NCBI GenBank assembly: GCA_050950505.1
Contig: JBMNHS010000001.1
Location: 832,001 to 896,000, forward strand
Direction of reading: 5' to 3'
From: Candidatus Methanomethylophilaceae archaeon
Lineage (GTDB): Archaea > Thermoplasmatota > Thermoplasmata > Methanomassiliicoccales > Methanomethylophilaceae
Length of the DNA stretch: 64,000 nt
Position 1 is the first letter of the stretch. The number at the start of each line of letters is the position of its first letter. This document shows, one piece after another, positions 21,662 to 64,000 of the stretch. A program made the translations under genes and the position numbers. The notes below the pieces were generated by a model. It saw nothing but the letters and a program-made list of their open reading frames with translations. It did not search any database and had not been told where the DNA came from.

Positions 21662-22609
21662 ATGCTCACATTCAACCAGATGTCAGGTATTGTTCCGGTC
21701 AAAGCAGGATGGTACAACGCGTTCAGACCCTGGACTCTTCACGGTGCGATAGTGCCGATAGTGCTGGCCGGATTCGTCGCGTTGCACGACGCCGGTTTCA
21801 ACTGGAAAATTCTCGACTGGTTCATGTTCATCCTAGTGCTGATCGGAGGCATACTTCTGCAGTCCGCGGCCAATCTTCTGAACACTTACGGGGATTTTGA
21901 GAAAGGAACCGACACCGTCGAAAACCATATTCGGTCTCCTGAACTTGTTACGGGAGAGTTAAGGTCAAAAGACGTCAGGAACGCAGGATTCCTTTGTGTC
22001 GGCATAACCGCACTGATAGGTCTCGTGCTTCTGTGGTACAGCGGATGGTGGCTTCTTCTGATAGGCCTCGCGGGAATCTTCGGAGTGGTCATGTACACTC
22101 TGGGCGTCTCTTACAAATATTTGGGCCTGGGTCAGATAAGTACGTTCTTTCTGATGGGAATCCTGATGCCCGTGGGAACATACTACACCATGTCCGGAAC
22201 AATGACCTGGGTTCCGATTCTCCTCGGACTGCCCAACGCATTCTTCCTGACCGGGGTTCTTTCCGGAAACGAAACCCGGGATTACTATTCGGACAAGGAA
22301 GCCGGAGCCAATACCATGTCCGGCCATATGAGCTACGAAGGGGCGCTGACTTACTACAGGACGATAAATTTCATCGGTTATCCGATTCTTCTGATTATCG
22401 TTGCGGTCGGGGTTGTTCCCGTAACGTGCCTGCTGGCCGTATTTGCGCTGTACGATTACAGGAAACTGTATCTGAACTCAAAAACCGAACCCATGGACAA
22501 AACCTCGGGATTTTTGTTGGTTCCGAGAGCCTTCACCCACAATTGGCATTTCGGTGCATTGCTCGCAATAGGTTATTTAATCGGAGTCGGTCTTCCGTTG
22601 TTGATTTGA
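21662..22609 (+). CDS. menA: MenA-like UbiA prenyltransferase
   Basis: RPWTL, NLLNTYGDFEKGTD, YKYLGLG, NETRDYYSD. Confidence 0.8.
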   Translation: MLTFNQMSGIVPVKAGWYNAFRPWTLHGAIVPIVLAGFVALHDAGFNWKILDWFMFILVLIGGILLQSAANLLNTYGDFEKGTDTVENHIRSPELVTGELRSKDVRNAGFLCVGITALIGLVLLWYSGWWLLLIGLAGIFGVVMYTLGVSYKYLGLGQISTFFLMGILMPVGTYYTMSGTMTWVPILLGLPNAFFLTGVLSGNETRDYYSDKEAGANTMSGHMSYEGALTYYRTINFIGYPILLIIVAVGVVPVTCLLAVFALYDYRKLYLNSKTEPMDKTSGFLLVPRAFTHNWHFGALLAIGYLIGVGLPLLI

Positions 22610-23349
22610 TGAAAGACAACGAGCAACTCGGGATTCAGTTCGAAGGCAAAGACGTCTACGTGAAAGACGTTTTCACCGAGATTTCTTCGTATTATGACGA
22701 AATGAATGACATTATGTCCATGGGTATGATCAAACGCTGGCATAAGTTCATGATGAAGAAACTCGGAGATCTTGAAGGCAAAAAATGCCTTGACGTCGGA
22801 ACCGGCACCGGCGAGATAGCCTTCCTCATGGCTTCACGGGGCGGGAACGTTACGGGAATAGATCTGACTCCCGCAATGATTGAACTCGCGGAGAAGAAGA
22901 TGACCGAGAAGAATCTGCCGAAAGCTGACCTGATGGTAGGCGATGCCCTCGATCTTCCTTTTGAGGAGGGTACTTTCGACTGCGTTACGTCGGGATACAT
23001 GCTGAGGAACGTCACCGACATACCGAAAGCCGTCAGCGAGATGTGCCGCGTCCTCAAATCCGGCGGTATATGCGTGGTTGCCGAATTGGCAAGACCCACG
23101 AACCGTTTAATTCGTCCCTTTTACAATTTTTACATGAACCGGATTATTCCCCGTTACGGACGGAAATACGACAAGGGCCAATCCATAGACGGACGGGAAC
23201 CCGCTTACGATTGGCTGACGGCGTCCATAGAAGGATTCCCTTACGGAAAAGAAATGACTGATATTTTCCTGGACGCCGGTTTCGACGAAGCAAGATTTTT
23301 CGTGAAAAGTTTCGGTGCCGTAAACATATACGAAGGAATCAAAAAGTGA
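22609..23349 (+). CDS. menG: MenG/UbiE-family methyltransferase
   Basis: YDEMNDIMSMG, LDVGTGTG, GDALDLPF, LRNV, RVLK; TGATG overlap with menA. Confidence 0.85.
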   Translation: MKDNEQLGIQFEGKDVYVKDVFTEISSYYDEMNDIMSMGMIKRWHKFMMKKLGDLEGKKCLDVGTGTGEIAFLMASRGGNVTGIDLTPAMIELAEKKMTEKNLPKADLMVGDALDLPFEEGTFDCVTSGYMLRNVTDIPKAVSEMCRVLKSGGICVVAELARPTNRLIRPFYNFYMNRIIPRYGRKYDKGQSIDGREPAYDWLTASIEGFPYGKEMTDIFLDAGFDEARFFVKSFGAVNIYEGIKK

Positions 23350-33523: not shown

Positions 33524-33542
33524 ATTGGATATATAATCCATA
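33524..33542. promoter_or_regulatory. Operator box 3 (exporter operon)
   Basis: ATTGGATATATAATCCATA. Confidence 0.75.
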
Positions 33543-33601
33543 TTGTGGCTGATCAATTTATGAATCTCCTATTCTGATGGAAATTCCATAACAATAAATA
33601 A

Positions 33602-33620
33602 ATTGGACTATATATCCAAT
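33602..33620. promoter_or_regulatory. Operator box 4 (importer ATPase 33644)
   Basis: ATTGGACTATATATCCAAT. Confidence 0.75.
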
Positions 33621-59823: not shown

Positions 59824-61110
59824 ATGGACGTAGGTCTCGTCGTAGCTTTGACAGCAATAATATTCGTTCTGTTGATTTTCTCAGCATATTTCTCAATGTC
59901 GGAAATGACATTCTCCACCGTCAACACAATCCGCTTAAAAAAATTGGATTCGGAAGGTGAAGTAAACGCCGCCAAGGCAATATCCCTCACCGAGGACTTT
60001 GATAAATTCCTGACTACGGTTTTAGTGGGAAACAATCTTGTCAACATCGCCGCATCAACCACCTGTGCCATGCTGTTCACGGAACAGCTGATGCCGGGCA
60101 ACCCGGGAATGGCAACACTTGCCGCCACGGTGATTATGACCGTAATCATACTCACATTCGGTGAGATACTGCCGAAAACCTTTGCCAAAAGAAATCCGGA
60201 ACATTACGCATTGAAACTGGTCAATTCTCTTTCTTTGTTCGTCACGATTCTGTATCCGATATCCTGGGCATTTGTCAAGATGAGCGCGATTCTCACAAAG
60301 AAGGAAGACGTGGATCCCGCACTCACCCTCACGGAAGATGAACTTGTGGTAATGATAAACGAAATCGAAGAGGAGGGAACTTTGGAAAAGGCGGAGAGCG
60401 ATCTGATCAAATCCGCAATCACTTTCGATGATACGAAACTCTCAGAAGTATACATTCCCAGAGTCGATGTGGTTGCCGTAAGCAAAGACGTGAACATGGA
60501 CGAACTGAAGGACATTTTCATTCACACCGGATATTCCAGAATCCCCGTTTACCATGAAAACATCGATCGCATTGTCGGTGTCGTGAATGCGAAAGACTTC
60601 TACCGAAGATATGTGGAAAACGACAATTTCAACATAATCGACATAATCCGTCAGGTGAAGTTCTTCGATGTATCCACGAACATCGACGAGGTACTCAGCG
60701 TGATGCAGAAAACCAAGGTTCACATGGCCGTGGTCCTGGACGCTTTCGGAGGGACGCTGGGTATCGTGACCCTTGAAGACCTCATAGAAGAACTCGTAGG
60801 GGAAATCTGGGATGAAAGCGATGATATCCTCCTCCCGGTGGTAAGGGAAGCCGACGGTTCGTACACCGTTCTCGGAGATGCCAACATCTTTGATGTAATG
60901 GACGATCTGGGTCTGGATTTCGATCCCGGCGAATATCAGGATTACAACGTAAGCGGATACATTCAGTATTCCACCGGAATGATTCCCAGAAGAGGAACCG
61001 TAGTGGAAACGGACAATCTGATCATCACAGTACTGTCTACCAAAGGACGCCGCGTGAAAGAAGCAAAGTTCGAAATCAAGCCCGCTCCGGAAGAACCGGA
61101 CGAGATTTGA
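59824..61110 (+). CDS. CNNM/TlyC/CorB-family protein (DUF21-CBS-CorC)
   Basis: FSMSE, LVGNNLVNI, GEILPK, YSRIPV, GIVTLEDLIEELVGEI. Confidence 0.93.
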   Translation: MDVGLVVALTAIIFVLLIFSAYFSMSEMTFSTVNTIRLKKLDSEGEVNAAKAISLTEDFDKFLTTVLVGNNLVNIAASTTCAMLFTEQLMPGNPGMATLAATVIMTVIILTFGEILPKTFAKRNPEHYALKLVNSLSLFVTILYPISWAFVKMSAILTKKEDVDPALTLTEDELVVMINEIEEEGTLEKAESDLIKSAITFDDTKLSEVYIPRVDVVAVSKDVNMDELKDIFIHTGYSRIPVYHENIDRIVGVVNAKDFYRRYVENDNFNIIDIIRQVKFFDVSTNIDEVLSVMQKTKVHMAVVLDAFGGTLGIVTLEDLIEELVGEIWDESDDILLPVVREADGSYTVLGDANIFDVMDDLGLDFDPGEYQDYNVSGYIQYSTGMIPRRGTVVETDNLIITVLSTKGRRVKEAKFEIKPAPEEPDEI

Positions 61111-61522
61111 GATATTCTTTCAGCACATCAATAGCCAGCTCTCTTTTTGCGGGATAAGATGCGACTTTACAGATAAATGATACGACGTCCCCTCCGGACC
61201 CTATGACATACTCACCGGACATCGCCTTTTGTTTGTCCAATCTGAAAAAGAAGCTGCAGTCTTCATCGATCCGTTCTTCTATTTCGTCAAGAATCCATTC
61301 AATGACATCCTTTCCGAGTCTGTCGAACAATCCGTCCATGTCCTTTCTCTTGGTGAGTTCGGCTTCAAGAATCAAAGTTCTGTTCCCCATTTCCCCTTCG
61401 GCGACATCAACTTCGTATTCATCGGTGCCAATCAGATTTTCAAACATTTCCGTAACACGGTCTTCGTCTTCTGTGGAGTAAATCATCACTCTGGATTTTA
61501 TCCATCTGAACGCAGGTTTCAT
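61076..61522 (-). CDS. Archaeal RNA-binding protein (DUF54 family)
   Basis: STEDEDRV, EGEMGN, FFFRLDKQ. Confidence 0.85.
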   Translation of the reverse strand: MKPAFRWIKSRVMIYSTEDEDRVTEMFENLIGTDEYEVDVAEGEMGNRTLILEAELTKRKDMDGLFDRLGKDVIEWILDEIEERIDEDCSFFFRLDKQKAMSGEYVIGSGGDVVSFICKVASYPAKRELAIDVLKEYLKSRPVLPERA

Positions 61523-62001: not shown

Positions 62002-62106
62002 ATTCCCCCATAGGGAGTCGGAGATATTTATTTTCCGTATAATAGGTTCGTCTGGCTGACGGAATGGGAATGTTTATATCATACTTCTTTATTGGTAATT
62101 CTCATC

Positions 62107-62183
62107 GGGCCCATAGCTTAGCCTGGTGGAGCGTCCGGCTGATAACCGGAAGGTCATGTGTTCGAATCACATTGGGCCCACCA
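62107..62183 (+). tRNA. tRNA-Ile(GAT), encoded CCA
   Basis: GGGCCCA/TGGGCCC acceptor stem, CTGATAA anticodon loop, TTCGAAT T-loop. Confidence 0.97.
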
Positions 62184-62336
62184 TAACCAAACCCCTTGAT
62201 GAAGATCCGCTCCGATTTTCGTTTTTCCTTTCAATCCGTTCATAATATCTCTTTTGATTCATTCGTATTTTTATTTTGCGGGTCAATGGATGCAACTTAG
62301 AAAGTTATTTATACTTTATACCTCGTAATATCTATT

Positions 62337-62556
62337 ACACGCGCAGAGGTCGCAGAATCGGTAGAACGGTCAAATGTCTCGCAAGACCTGTGTTCGAAGA
62401 TTCAGTGCCCTATACATCGTGAGACGGATAGGAACCGTCGCCTGAACGATACGAAGATTCCCTACTGGAATCATATAATGATTCGGGCCCTCCGGTATTC
62501 CTGATACAGAACAACAAGAGGGTGTATGCAGAATCGTTGTACGGCTCTGCGCGTGT
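62337..62556 (+). ncRNA. Candidate structured non-coding RNA (~220 nt), family unknown
   Basis: 12-bp terminal stem, loop-E motif, GNRA-capable hairpins, BRE/TATA about 25-30 nt upstream, T-rich tract downstream, no ORF of 60 aa or more in the track. Confidence 0.7.
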
Positions 62557-62648
62557 TGTCGGATTGCTTATTTGAATTTTTATGATTTTATAATGTATCG
62601 AAACAGAGCAAGCTCGATGTTTGAGGGTATTGTCATTTCAACAAAGTA

Positions 62649-62695
62649 AAAAAAATCAAAGACCTCTTGCTTCGCGTGACGCAAAGCAAGAAGTC
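62649..62695 (-). terminator. Terminator of glycine betaine transporter
   Basis: TCTTGCTT/AAGCAAGA stem followed by poly-T on the minus strand. Confidence 0.65.
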
Positions 62696-62710
62696 TCCAT
62701 AAGTTGTTTT

Positions 62711-64000
62711 TCAATCAGACGGTCCGTTCCAATCTTTCGGTCCGTATTCATCAAGATACTGGCCGTGTGTGGCCGGGGCCCATACGGTAGTGGTCAGATC
62801 GATGTGTCCGTAAGCCAATCCGGCATACAGCGGACCCGCGGTAACCTGTCGGGTCTCAACCGTGTATCCCAGTTCTTCCAGCAAATGCTTCAGCACGTTC
62901 GTGGATCCCACGGCACAGGACCAATCAACAAGACCGAGAACTATATTTCCGCGACTCTCGCCGACATTCAAATCCTTCAGCCATTTTTCTTTGATATCCT
63001 CATTTTCCGTCAGCCACATCAAAGCAGATTCAGAGATGTCCGATCCGTCTTTCCGATCTTCGATAAACTCCAGAAGTCCGTTGAACTCATCGACGGAATA
63101 CGAATATCTGCTCATCAACAAAGCAAGATCCGCATCATTTTTCAATAATCCGTTCCTGGCCCAGGACTGTATGGATTCGGCTTCTCCGTAAACCCCCAAA
63201 TCATCTTCCAGATAGATCATTTCATATTTTGATGCGGCCCAATGGGGATCCCACAAAGTCACAACGATGTATTCGTTGTTCTCATAAGCCGCTTTAAGGC
63301 TGGTAAGCATTCCCGCTTCCGAACTCGATTGAAGTTCAAAATTCAAACCATAATCTTCTATGGCCTGTTCGGTCATGTTCATGATGCCCGCTCCGGAATC
63401 GATACCGATAATTTTTCCTTTGAAAGCATCGAAGTGAGTGTCAAGATCGGAAACGGTTCTCACTCCGAGCATGTCGTACGTATACGTGGTAACGGCCAAA
63501 CCCAGTTTGGCACCGTTATCGAGAACATCGCCCGCAAATTCTATGTCTTCCATCTTGTCTTCATCGACAAAGAAAAACGCGCCGGCGCTGACCACAAGAA
63601 ATACAGCAAGTACGCCGGTGCCGATTTTTAAGGTTCTCATTGTATCCTTTTTGCTTCTTGACACAAAAACTTCAGGTTCCGTTTTGGTAAACGATTGTGT
63701 GAGTCTGTCCAGAGTCATCGCTATCAATACCACGGCAAGACCCGCTTCGAATCCCACGGCGATATCGATCCGGTTCAATGCGTACACAATATCTCCGCCG
63801 AGTCCGCCTCCGCCGATCATGGCGGCGATGACAACCATCGACAATGAGAGCATGATGCATTGGTTGATTCCGGTCATTATTGACGGCATTGCGATGGGAA
63901 GCTGAACTTTGGTAAGTTTGTCCCATTTCGTGGAACCGAAGGCATCGGCCACCTCGTTCATCTCTTCGGGAACCTGACGGATTCCCAGGTTGGTCAGCCT
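62711..64000 (-). CDS. Glycine betaine ABC permease fused to binding domain (ProW-ProX/OpuAB-AC); 5' end beyond window
   Basis: EAA-like loop EVADAFG, VQLPIAMP, GIDSGAG, WDPHW. Confidence 0.9.
   Translation of the reverse strand, partial: RLTNLGIRQVPEEMNEVADAFGSTKWDKLTKVQLPIAMPSIMTGINQCIMLSLSMVVIAAMIGGGGLGGDIVYALNRIDIAVGFEAGLAVVLIAMTLDRLTQSFTKTEPEVFVSRSKKDTMRTLKIGTGVLAVFLVVSAGAFFFVDEDKMEDIEFAGDVLDNGAKLGLAVTTYTYDMLGVRTVSDLDTHFDAFKGKIIGIDSGAGIMNMTEQAIEDYGLNFELQSSSEAGMLTSLKAAYENNEYIVVTLWDPHWAASKYEMIYLEDDLGVYGEAESIQSWARNGLLKNDADLALLMSRYSYSVDEFNGLLEFIEDRKDGSDISESALMWLTENEDIKEKWLKDLNVGESRGNIVLGLVDWSCAVGSTNVLKHLLEELGYTVETRQVTAGPLYAGLAYGHIDLTTTVWAPATHGQYLDEYGPKDWNGPSD

Follow-up and report, generated by a model that had tools for sequence, protein, structure and literature searches.

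The DNA analysed here (hereafter the window) is a stretch of 64,000 nucleotides, positions 832,001 to 896,000 of contig JBMNHS010000001.1 (C1) in assembly GCA_050950505.1, from a Candidatus Methanomethylophilaceae archaeon whose 1.33 Mb genome (G000; two contigs, 99.6% complete) carries mcrA. With a probability of roughly 0.8, window positions 62337-62556 on the plus strand (C1:894337-894556) are the gene for a stable, well-expressed, stand-alone structured RNA, a member of a family that is absent from Rfam 15 and from the literature searched. Relative to these sources the RNA family is new, and it is for the family, not for a mechanism, that newness is claimed. An earlier note on this DNA, made from the letters alone, had pointed to a structured RNA of a possibly undescribed class downstream of tRNA-Ile.

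Comparison of the element with its own genome by BLAST revealed a second site that matches only the first 65 nt, namely the promoter and the 5′ end, and the same pattern was found in genomes of the same genus. Each 65-nt match leads into a body of 220-260 nt whose last bases complement its 5′ end, and the copies differ in a compensatory manner; ACACGCGCAGAG/CUCUGCGCGUGU in one copy, for example, corresponds to GCACGCGUGGAG/CUUCACGCGUGC in another. A profile search with nhmmer detected exactly two copies in G000, the one in the window and one at C1:1088918-1089148. Altogether, 32 full-length copies of 220-268 nt (median 253 nt) were aligned. Two covariance models were used: R1 was built from 10 copies and lacks helices P2 and P3, while R2 holds more structure and lacks P4 (helix names as in Table 1).

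Covariation among these homologues is strong. In the first alignment, standard pairs fill 88.5% of the cells of the 52 proposed pairs, compared to 27.6-53.7% when the partners are slid by 1-3 columns. Changes on both sides were observed at 35 of the 52 pairs (15-23 for slid partners), compensatory cells number 180 (21-64 for slid partners), and none of 500 shuffles reached any of the observed covariation measures. Re-alignment with R2 gave 89.9% paired cells and 31 compensatory pairs out of 47. As P2 and P3 lie outside model R1, on which the first alignment was based, their support (4/5 and 5/8 pairs compensatory, respectively) is not a fitting artefact. Similarly, P4 shows compensatory changes at all five core pairs in the R2 re-alignment, although it is outside R2. 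G-U pairs are frequent, occurring for example in 11, 24 and 31 sequences at single pairs, and would become A-C mismatches in the reverse complement. These pairs, the promoter and the T-tract jointly fix the plus strand. An all-against-all column scan for tertiary pairs or pseudoknots was dominated by phylogenetic signal.

The 220 nt of the window copy fold with -78.0 kcal/mol, compared to -62.2 ± 4.3 kcal/mol for 200 shuffled sequences (z = -3.68; no shuffle equalled it). The reverse strand is nearly as stable (z = -3.23), hence neither a function nor the strand can be deduced from the folding energy alone. RNAalifold applied to the 32 copies and single-sequence folds agree on a common architecture, a five-way junction with helices P1 to P6. 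The GC-rich P1 pairs the 5′ with the 3′ end over 12 bp, plus 2 bp beyond a bulge, and closes the junction, from which four arms extend (P2, P3, P4 and P5-P6). P2 contains an internal loop, mostly 5′-UAAG/3′-CGAA, and a variable tip; P3 is long and also variable at its tip; P4 is a short hairpin; and P5 closes P6 and a distal hairpin. The termini read GCACGCG.../...CGCGUGC in all copies. The purine-rich joiners J1/2 (UCGCA), J2/3 (AGRGCCCYRCA), J3/4 (GAAGA) and the 3′ joiner (GUAAGG) are the most conserved parts, so that the unpaired joiners are better conserved than the helices. Positions in Table 1 follow the minimum free energy (MFE) fold and direct reading of the window; the consensus projected from alignment A2 is off by one base in P2 and P4.

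All motifs quoted in the earlier note lie where it had placed them, including AGAAAG at 62299, GAATC/GATTC at 62355/62399 and GAAC/GTTC at 62364/62392, and its perfect closing stem of 12 bp is P1. The two sequences that it had described as repeated, GCAGAATCG (at 62352 and 62528) and CGAAGATTC (at 62395 and 62452), are 9-mer duplications peculiar to the window copy. The hairpins that it had listed fared differently in the family alignment: P1, GAATC/GATTC with GAAC/GTTC (P2), GATTCC/GGAATC (P4) and CCCTC/GAGGG (P6) were retained, whereas CCTAT/ATAGG, AACGAT/ATCGTT and GAATCAT/ATGATTC were not. Instead, ATGATTC pairs with GAATCGT at 62531 (P5) and ACGAT with ATCGT at 62416 (P3). The note had also read the internal loop of P2 as a sarcin-ricin or loop-E motif. 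Such bulged-G motifs have 5′-(A/G)GUA-3′ opposite 5′-GAA-3′ with a conserved bulged G. GGUA/GAA fits the window copy, but no more than 7 of the 33 copies have the bulged G; ahead of UA, 19 have C, 6 have A and 1 has U. On the 5′ strand UAAG is most frequent (19/33), on the 3′ side the four bases found most often are CGAA (15/33), and a GAA triplet is present in about 24/33 copies. This majority form looks more like a UAA/GAN-type loop.

The upstream region suggests a dedicated promoter. The motif GGATGYAAC was found exactly in 25 of the 32 copies, with one mismatch in 5, with two mismatches in 1 and not at all in 1, and its position is constant at 48-52 nt before the first RNA base in both genera in which the family was detected. 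The sole copy without it is the downstream member of a tandem pair in genome G008. The 11-mer TGGATGYAACT is confined to the two RNA genes in G000. We infer that GGATGYAAC is a dedicated regulatory site. The B recognition element (BRE) and TATA box that follow it resemble the promoter of the genome's own 5S rRNA gene, with 5 mismatches over 21 positions, and the distance from TATA box to first RNA base is 22 nt, as at the 5S rRNA gene. Because of this equal spacing, the first base of P1 is the most likely transcription start. At the other end, RNA contigs from three runs (X16, X17 and X18) stop within 62545-62562, and other family copies have T-runs within about 5-30 nt of the RNA end.

Evidence for expression comes from six RNA-library runs, in which 45-63% of the words sampled from 401 nt centred on the element were present, roughly the share taken up by the RNA. 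Four of them were mapped, as assembled contigs, on window positions 62050-62800 (Table 1). X16, X17 and X18 come from one study each, three in total, and their stand-alone contigs match the RNA and leave its flanks uncovered, in agreement with the predicted species of about 220 nt, though uncovered flanks are weak evidence. No circular joints were seen, although contigs are little suited to show them. These data are a good hint at, not proof of, a discrete and fairly abundant transcript of the RNA gene. The metatranscriptomes concerned come from anaerobic digesters and bioreactors, and the runs with matching DNA are labelled as landfill, bioreactor, digester and wastewater metagenomes. A second X16 contig (record 3) aligns with window positions 62393-62523 with 12 differences and unlike ends on both sides; it presumably represents the copy of a related strain that is also expressed in the same digester sample.

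The distribution of the family is narrow. The following statements refer to the genomes searched, in overlapping samples and with strict filters. Within 151 genomes of the taxonomic family, R1 gave matches in 18 including G000, with 13/15 in the genus of the window (g1), 4/4 in a second genus (g9) and 0/131 in 17 other genera. R2 gave 8 matches in 151 genomes of the order, all in g1 (6/7 genomes) or g9 (1/1), and among 151 genomes of the class its matches were confined to g1 (3/3). A search of 40 relatives with R2, laxer filters and E ≤ 1 yielded 0/23 for the genomes of 16 other genera, and a lone 12-bit match in G008 (E = 0.48) is attributable to chance. The DNA that follows tRNA-Ile in five complete genomes of other genera is unrelated (at most 3.7 bits with filters off). 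The viral contig collection contained no match to the RNA family, the metagenome collection gave 11 loci, all of species already in the set, and the matches listed by a pattern scan of genome contigs were all due to chance, in GC-rich bacteria.

Carriers hold 1-3 copies each, and the diverged paralogs keep the core and vary in their arms. One group within g1 has a well-conserved form B1 and a divergent form A, another has a 268-nt form B2 and a 250-nt form B3, and g9 has B1-like copies. Form A (G000, G015) and B2 (G013) are located just downstream of tRNA-Ile(GAT), and B3 about 1 kb upstream of tRNA-Ala(UGC). The window copy is of type A, the most divergent subtype, and is among the lowest-scoring copies with 103 bits compared to 180-210 bits for the B forms; two type A copies of G015 score 92-95 bits. 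P1, P2, P4, GAAGA and the GCCC joiner are retained in it, but the P3 and P5-P6 arms differ and are shorter. Several carriers have tandem pairs with starts about 500-850 nt apart; in four relatives (loci L015, L035, L041 and L042) the two tandem copies are about 480-850 nt apart. G007 has an ortholog with about 90% identity to the window copy that is divided between two contig ends (L003 on C85 and L008 on C44) with an overlap of 22 nt, an assembly break inside the RNA gene, perhaps caused by strain variation or paralogs.

None of the described RNA classes considered accounts for the element. At gathering threshold, the 4227 covariance models of Rfam 15 detected two tRNAs only in the whole window. 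When 62150-62750 and two paralog types were scanned permissively, nothing on the element surpassed E = 1 or 17 bits, and no match had E < 0.1, which agrees with the proposed undescribed class. The earlier note had argued against RNase P, signal recognition particle (SRP) and 5S RNA, and all three are indeed encoded elsewhere: RNase P RNA has its single RF00373 match in the genome at C1:804398-804688 (205.6 bits) and none in the element, SRP (7S) RNA has its single RF01857 match at C1:1093142-1093447 (157.1 bits), and 5S rRNA is located at C1:76448-76569. An rRNA fragment was also rejected, as the 16S and 23S genes are present in full length (model positions 1-1478 and 1-2987), unlinked and elsewhere in the genome. 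Equally, the element is no cis-acting leader or riboswitch. In 8/8 family loci examined the downstream gene is convergent, no co-directional gene follows, and a T-rich tract succeeds the RNA; at the window locus, the convergent gene is an OpuAC/permease fusion, in line with the note's argument against a 5′ leader.

Guide RNAs, retrons and peptides were considered as well. C/D RNAs carry a C box (RUGAUGA) and a D box (CUGA) by a short terminal stem, and H/ACA RNAs an ACA box 3 nt from the 3′ end and a pseudouridylation pocket. The termini of the element have no such boxes, and the only C/D model matches, 12.2 and 17.2 bits, fall short of their cut-offs (50 and 45). The terminal repeats would suit a retron msr-msd, but no reverse transcriptase was found among the flanking open reading frames (ORFs) scanned against Pfam. 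A protein-coding gene does not fit lengths of 220-268 nt that vary in non-triplet steps. Stop-free frames on the reverse strand exist in 18/33 copies, in three phases and with unrelated peptides, and in the window copy each of the three reverse frames is interrupted by stops. A kink-turn (K-turn), as bound by L7Ae, combines a canonical stem and a 3-nt bulge with adjacent tandem sheared G-A pairs. The 3′ flank at the base of P4 is UGAAGCG in 18/33 copies, CAAAG or AAAAG in g9 and UCAUA in type A copies including that of the window, with no canonical C-stem, and this candidate site was rejected.

In the literature searched, a limited search that included PMC4153887 and bioRxiv 10.64898/2026.10.21.760802, no description of the RNA family was found. 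The non-coding RNA (ncRNA) table of PMC4153887 (Table S1) is, according to its methods, based on Rfam.

The RNA very probably acts in trans. By analogy with Y, 6S and CsrB-type RNAs, its most likely mode of action, which we put forward tentatively, would be that of a protein-binding scaffold or decoy ribonucleoprotein (RNP). The paralogs would then be isoforms of this RNA, and a dedicated transcription factor acting at the upstream element would control their expression. Such a mode is favoured because the isoforms share a common core, the ends are protected, conservation lies in the junction instead of a linear seed, and the genes seemingly have their own regulator.

Several observations weigh against an expressed RNA gene with such a role. 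Two g1 genomes (92% and 73% complete) gave no match, so that cells may be able to do without the RNA. In g9 and in type A copies, the tandem-GA flank of P4 that might bind L7Ae is not maintained. A repeated motif for protein binding was not observed in the RNA. At the flanks examined, no neighbouring protein gene is conserved, and the neighbourhood suggests no partner protein. As for expression, the data are assembled contigs, so that exact ends, strand and level are beyond their reach. Moreover, run X15 is labelled FAIRE-seq/PCR, and its contig starts with an adapter and extends past the RNA, which may reflect DNA carry-over or read-through. Finally, the aligned sequences come from few clades and the shuffle statistics thus overstate their independence; the slid-partner control is fairer, and it is clear.

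Other modes of action appear less probable than a scaffold or decoy. The RNA could be catalytic by itself, as a ribozyme, or as the RNA part of a catalytic RNP; it would then be an analogue of RNase P-like RNAs specific to this lineage, with the junction joiners as the active site. Its size of 220-268 nt, the compact multi-helix junction, joiners that are more conserved than the helices (GCCC in 32/33) and an expression that is apparently high enough for assembly from metatranscriptomes would suit this explanation. We nevertheless consider it unlikely, as the RNA resembles no Rfam ribozyme model, each genome holds 2-3 strongly diverged paralogs (with the window copy at 103 bits versus 180-210), the range is limited to two genera, and a genuine RNase P RNA is present. 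A combined and more far-reaching proposal, that the family constitutes the RNA subunit of a lineage-specific RNP or a new ribozyme class in methylotrophic methanogens, with the five-way junction as active or assembly core and 2-3 functionally distinct isoforms switched by a dedicated transcription factor reading GGATGYAAC, is doubtful. Antisense regulation, in which an unpaired segment would pair with mRNAs or stable RNAs, is also rather unlikely. The gene stands alone behind a seemingly regulated promoter, and the loops that vary between paralogs could hold different seeds. However, a whole-genome scan for perfect complements of every 11-14-mer of both paralogs found only scattered sites, the longest of 14 nt (one for the window copy, six for the paralog), with no complement in the rRNA sense strand and no clustering. 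This looks like chance level, since about two 14-mers per RNA are expected by chance (an estimate, not a shuffle control). In addition, it is the junction joiners that are conserved, and typical seed-type small RNAs are far smaller and less structured.

A conserved junction core with a variable periphery is also seen in aptamers, and a ligand-sensing RNA, i.e. a trans-acting riboswitch-like aptamer or a metabolite sponge, may be imagined. We regard it as improbable: there is no expression platform (8/8 loci convergent), no riboswitch model matches, and the neighbouring genes are metabolically unrelated. The explanation with the least support in our judgement, and a highly improbable one, is a non-autonomous miniature inverted-repeat transposable element (MITE), or the remnant of an integrated element beside tRNA-Ile, whose inverted repeats mimic the closing stem. 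It would account for the perfect 12-bp terminal inverted repeat, for the position directly behind a tRNA gene, where elements commonly integrate, and for the unrelated DNA found there in other genera. The earlier note had named dispersed copies with target-site duplications as the mark of such an element. Instead, the genome has two copies and other carriers have 1-3, direct repeats are not visible at the flanks, and each copy has a conserved promoter at fixed spacing, covarying internal helices and G-U pairs that give the strand. The unit is transcribed discretely, viral contigs contain no match, and positions are conserved relative to tRNA-Ile and tRNA-Ala. The probability left over among the modes of action falls to a described RNA that was not recognised here, or to something else.

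Table 1 Features at the locus of the structured RNA gene and RNA-library contigs mapped to it (window coordinates).
Feature	Position	Strand	Basis or remark
Structured RNA gene, type A family member, 220 nt	62337-62556	+	Covariance model matches of 148.9 bits (R1) and 103.4 bits (R2); RNA contigs
Upstream promoter element TGGATGCAACT, family-specific, directly 5′ of BRE	62287-62297	+	Motif counts in 32 copies
BRE AGAAAG (62299) and TATA box TTATTTATAC (62305)	62299-62314	+	Positions checked in sequence
P1, 5′ strand ACACGCGCAGAG	62337-62348	+	12 bp, perfect; family P1 97.3% paired, 5/14 pairs compensatory
P2 arm: GAATC/GATTC, internal loop GGTA/GAA, GAAC/GTTC, GGTC/GACC, distal hairpin	62355-62403	+	Family base helix 87.5-90% paired, 4-5/5 pairs compensatory
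Joiner J2/3 AGTGCCCTATA	62404-62414	+	Family consensus AGRGCCCYRCA; GCCC in 32/33 aligned copies
P3 arm: ATCGT/ACGAT, GACGG/CCGTC	62416-62450	+	MFE fold; family P3 8 bp, 85-87% paired, 5 compensatory pairs
P4 hairpin GATTCC/GGAATC, after conserved GAAGA joiner	62456-62472	+	Family columns 168-172/180-184 each compensatory
P5-P6 arm: TATAATGATTC/GAATCGTTGTA closing CCCTC/GAGGG and distal hairpin	62474-62541	+	MFE fold; P5 97.9% paired; inner helices 85-87%, 4-5 compensatory pairs each
P1, 3′ strand CTCTGCGCGTGT	62545-62556	+	Perfect complement of 62337-62348
T-rich 3′ flank (TTATTT, TTTTT, TTTT), likely archaeal oligo-T termination zone	62557-62595	+	Direct reading
X16 contig, 205 nt	62349-62553		Word depth 38
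X17 contig, 218 nt	62345-62562		Word depth 21
X18 contig, 198 nt	62349-62545		Word depth 4
X15 contig, 683 nt	62345 to beyond 62800		Word depth 29
PF01877 'RNA_binding' gene	61076-61522	-	Divergent from tRNA-Ile; two genes upstream of the window copy
Gene for 160 amino acids	61519-62001	-	Divergent from tRNA-Ile; no Pfam match
tRNA-Ile(GAT)	62107-62183		Upstream of the RNA gene
GC-rich strong hairpin AGACCTCTTGCTTCGCG...CGCAAAGCAAGAAGTCT	62657-62699		Between the RNA gene and the OpuAC stop codon
OpuAC/permease fusion gene	62711-63961	-	Convergent; next gene downstream of the RNA gene

The genes around the family loci are unrelated housekeeping genes (corA/nrdD, opuA, a Zn-ribbon gene, chorismate synthase/GHMP kinase and nitrogenase-like/ACT genes). 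Next to the window copy, the PF01877 'RNA_binding' gene might suggest a functional link to the RNA, but the same tRNA-Ile/PF01877 neighbourhood is present in a genus without the RNA (L183), and the link is therefore probably positional only. The strong hairpin on the other side of the RNA gene gave rise to the weak miRNA-like Rfam matches, and it is probably the 3′-end structure of the transcript of the convergent OpuAC gene. In another genus (L179; G020, C1:663843 onward), perfect long hairpins and a small DNA-binding-like ORF were observed downstream of tRNA-Ile, which may be an element integrated at the tRNA gene.

In the entire window, seven inverted pairs were detected (seed of 11 nt, arms at most 400 nt apart), and the two perfect ones are the P1 repeat and a hairpin composed of A and T only. 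Others are located at 33524-33620 (17 nt, 94%, 63 nt between the arms) and 22489-22725 (14 nt, 93%, 209 nt between the arms). Outside the window, regularly spaced k-mer sites in G000 at C1:647297-650216 (8 sites, 417 nt apart) and C1:413731-415128 (4 sites, 414-569 nt apart) probably indicate long tandem repeats in genes for repeat-domain proteins.

To our knowledge, very few ncRNAs with a complex fold have been described in Archaea beyond rRNA, tRNA, RNase P, SRP and guide RNAs. A length of about 250 nt, a five-way junction backed by covariation, a promoter element of its own, paralogous isoforms and presence in metatranscriptomes usually mark RNAs with a biochemical job, not simple antisense regulators. 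The hosts are methanogens of landfills, digesters and wastewater, and if the RNA forms an abundant RNP, this would bear on the physiology of these organisms and would offer a compact new fold to RNA structural biology. The family's range of two genera makes it a clean case of the recent birth of a structured RNA gene.

Among known systems, a MITE with terminal inverted repeats shares with the element the perfect 12-bp inverted repeat bounding a unit of about 220 bp beside a tRNA gene. The element differs from it by its two copies, its own promoter, covarying internal helices, strand-specific G-U pairs and transcription as a unit, and no target-site duplication is visible. Archaeal RNase P RNA (RF00373; types A, M and T) is, like the element, encoded by a stand-alone stable-RNA gene of a few hundred nucleotides, its terminal P1 pairs the 5′ and 3′ ends and closes a multi-helix junction, and conservation resides mostly in unpaired joiners. 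In contrast to RNase P RNA, the family shows no match to the respective model and, by eye, no universal motif of the GAGGAAAGUCC type, it has several paralogs per genome, and it is found in two genera only.

With Y RNAs, 6S RNA and CsrB/C, the family has in common a long terminal helix that seals the ends, paralogous isoforms, abundant stable transcripts and the lack of a linked target gene. Since there is no homology in sequence or structure and no repeated binding motif was seen, these RNAs serve as a working analogy and do not imply membership. OLE, GOLLD, ROOL, HEARO and raiA are orphan large structured ncRNAs of bacteria that were found by comparative genomics. The family resembles them in its complex, covariation-supported fold, its stand-alone gene, its narrow range and its apparently high expression, and it is smaller than OLE, GOLLD or ROOL. 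It matches no Rfam model, those of these RNAs included. Unlike them, it is archaeal and combines a different architecture with a dedicated upstream motif and 2-3 diverged paralogs per genome.

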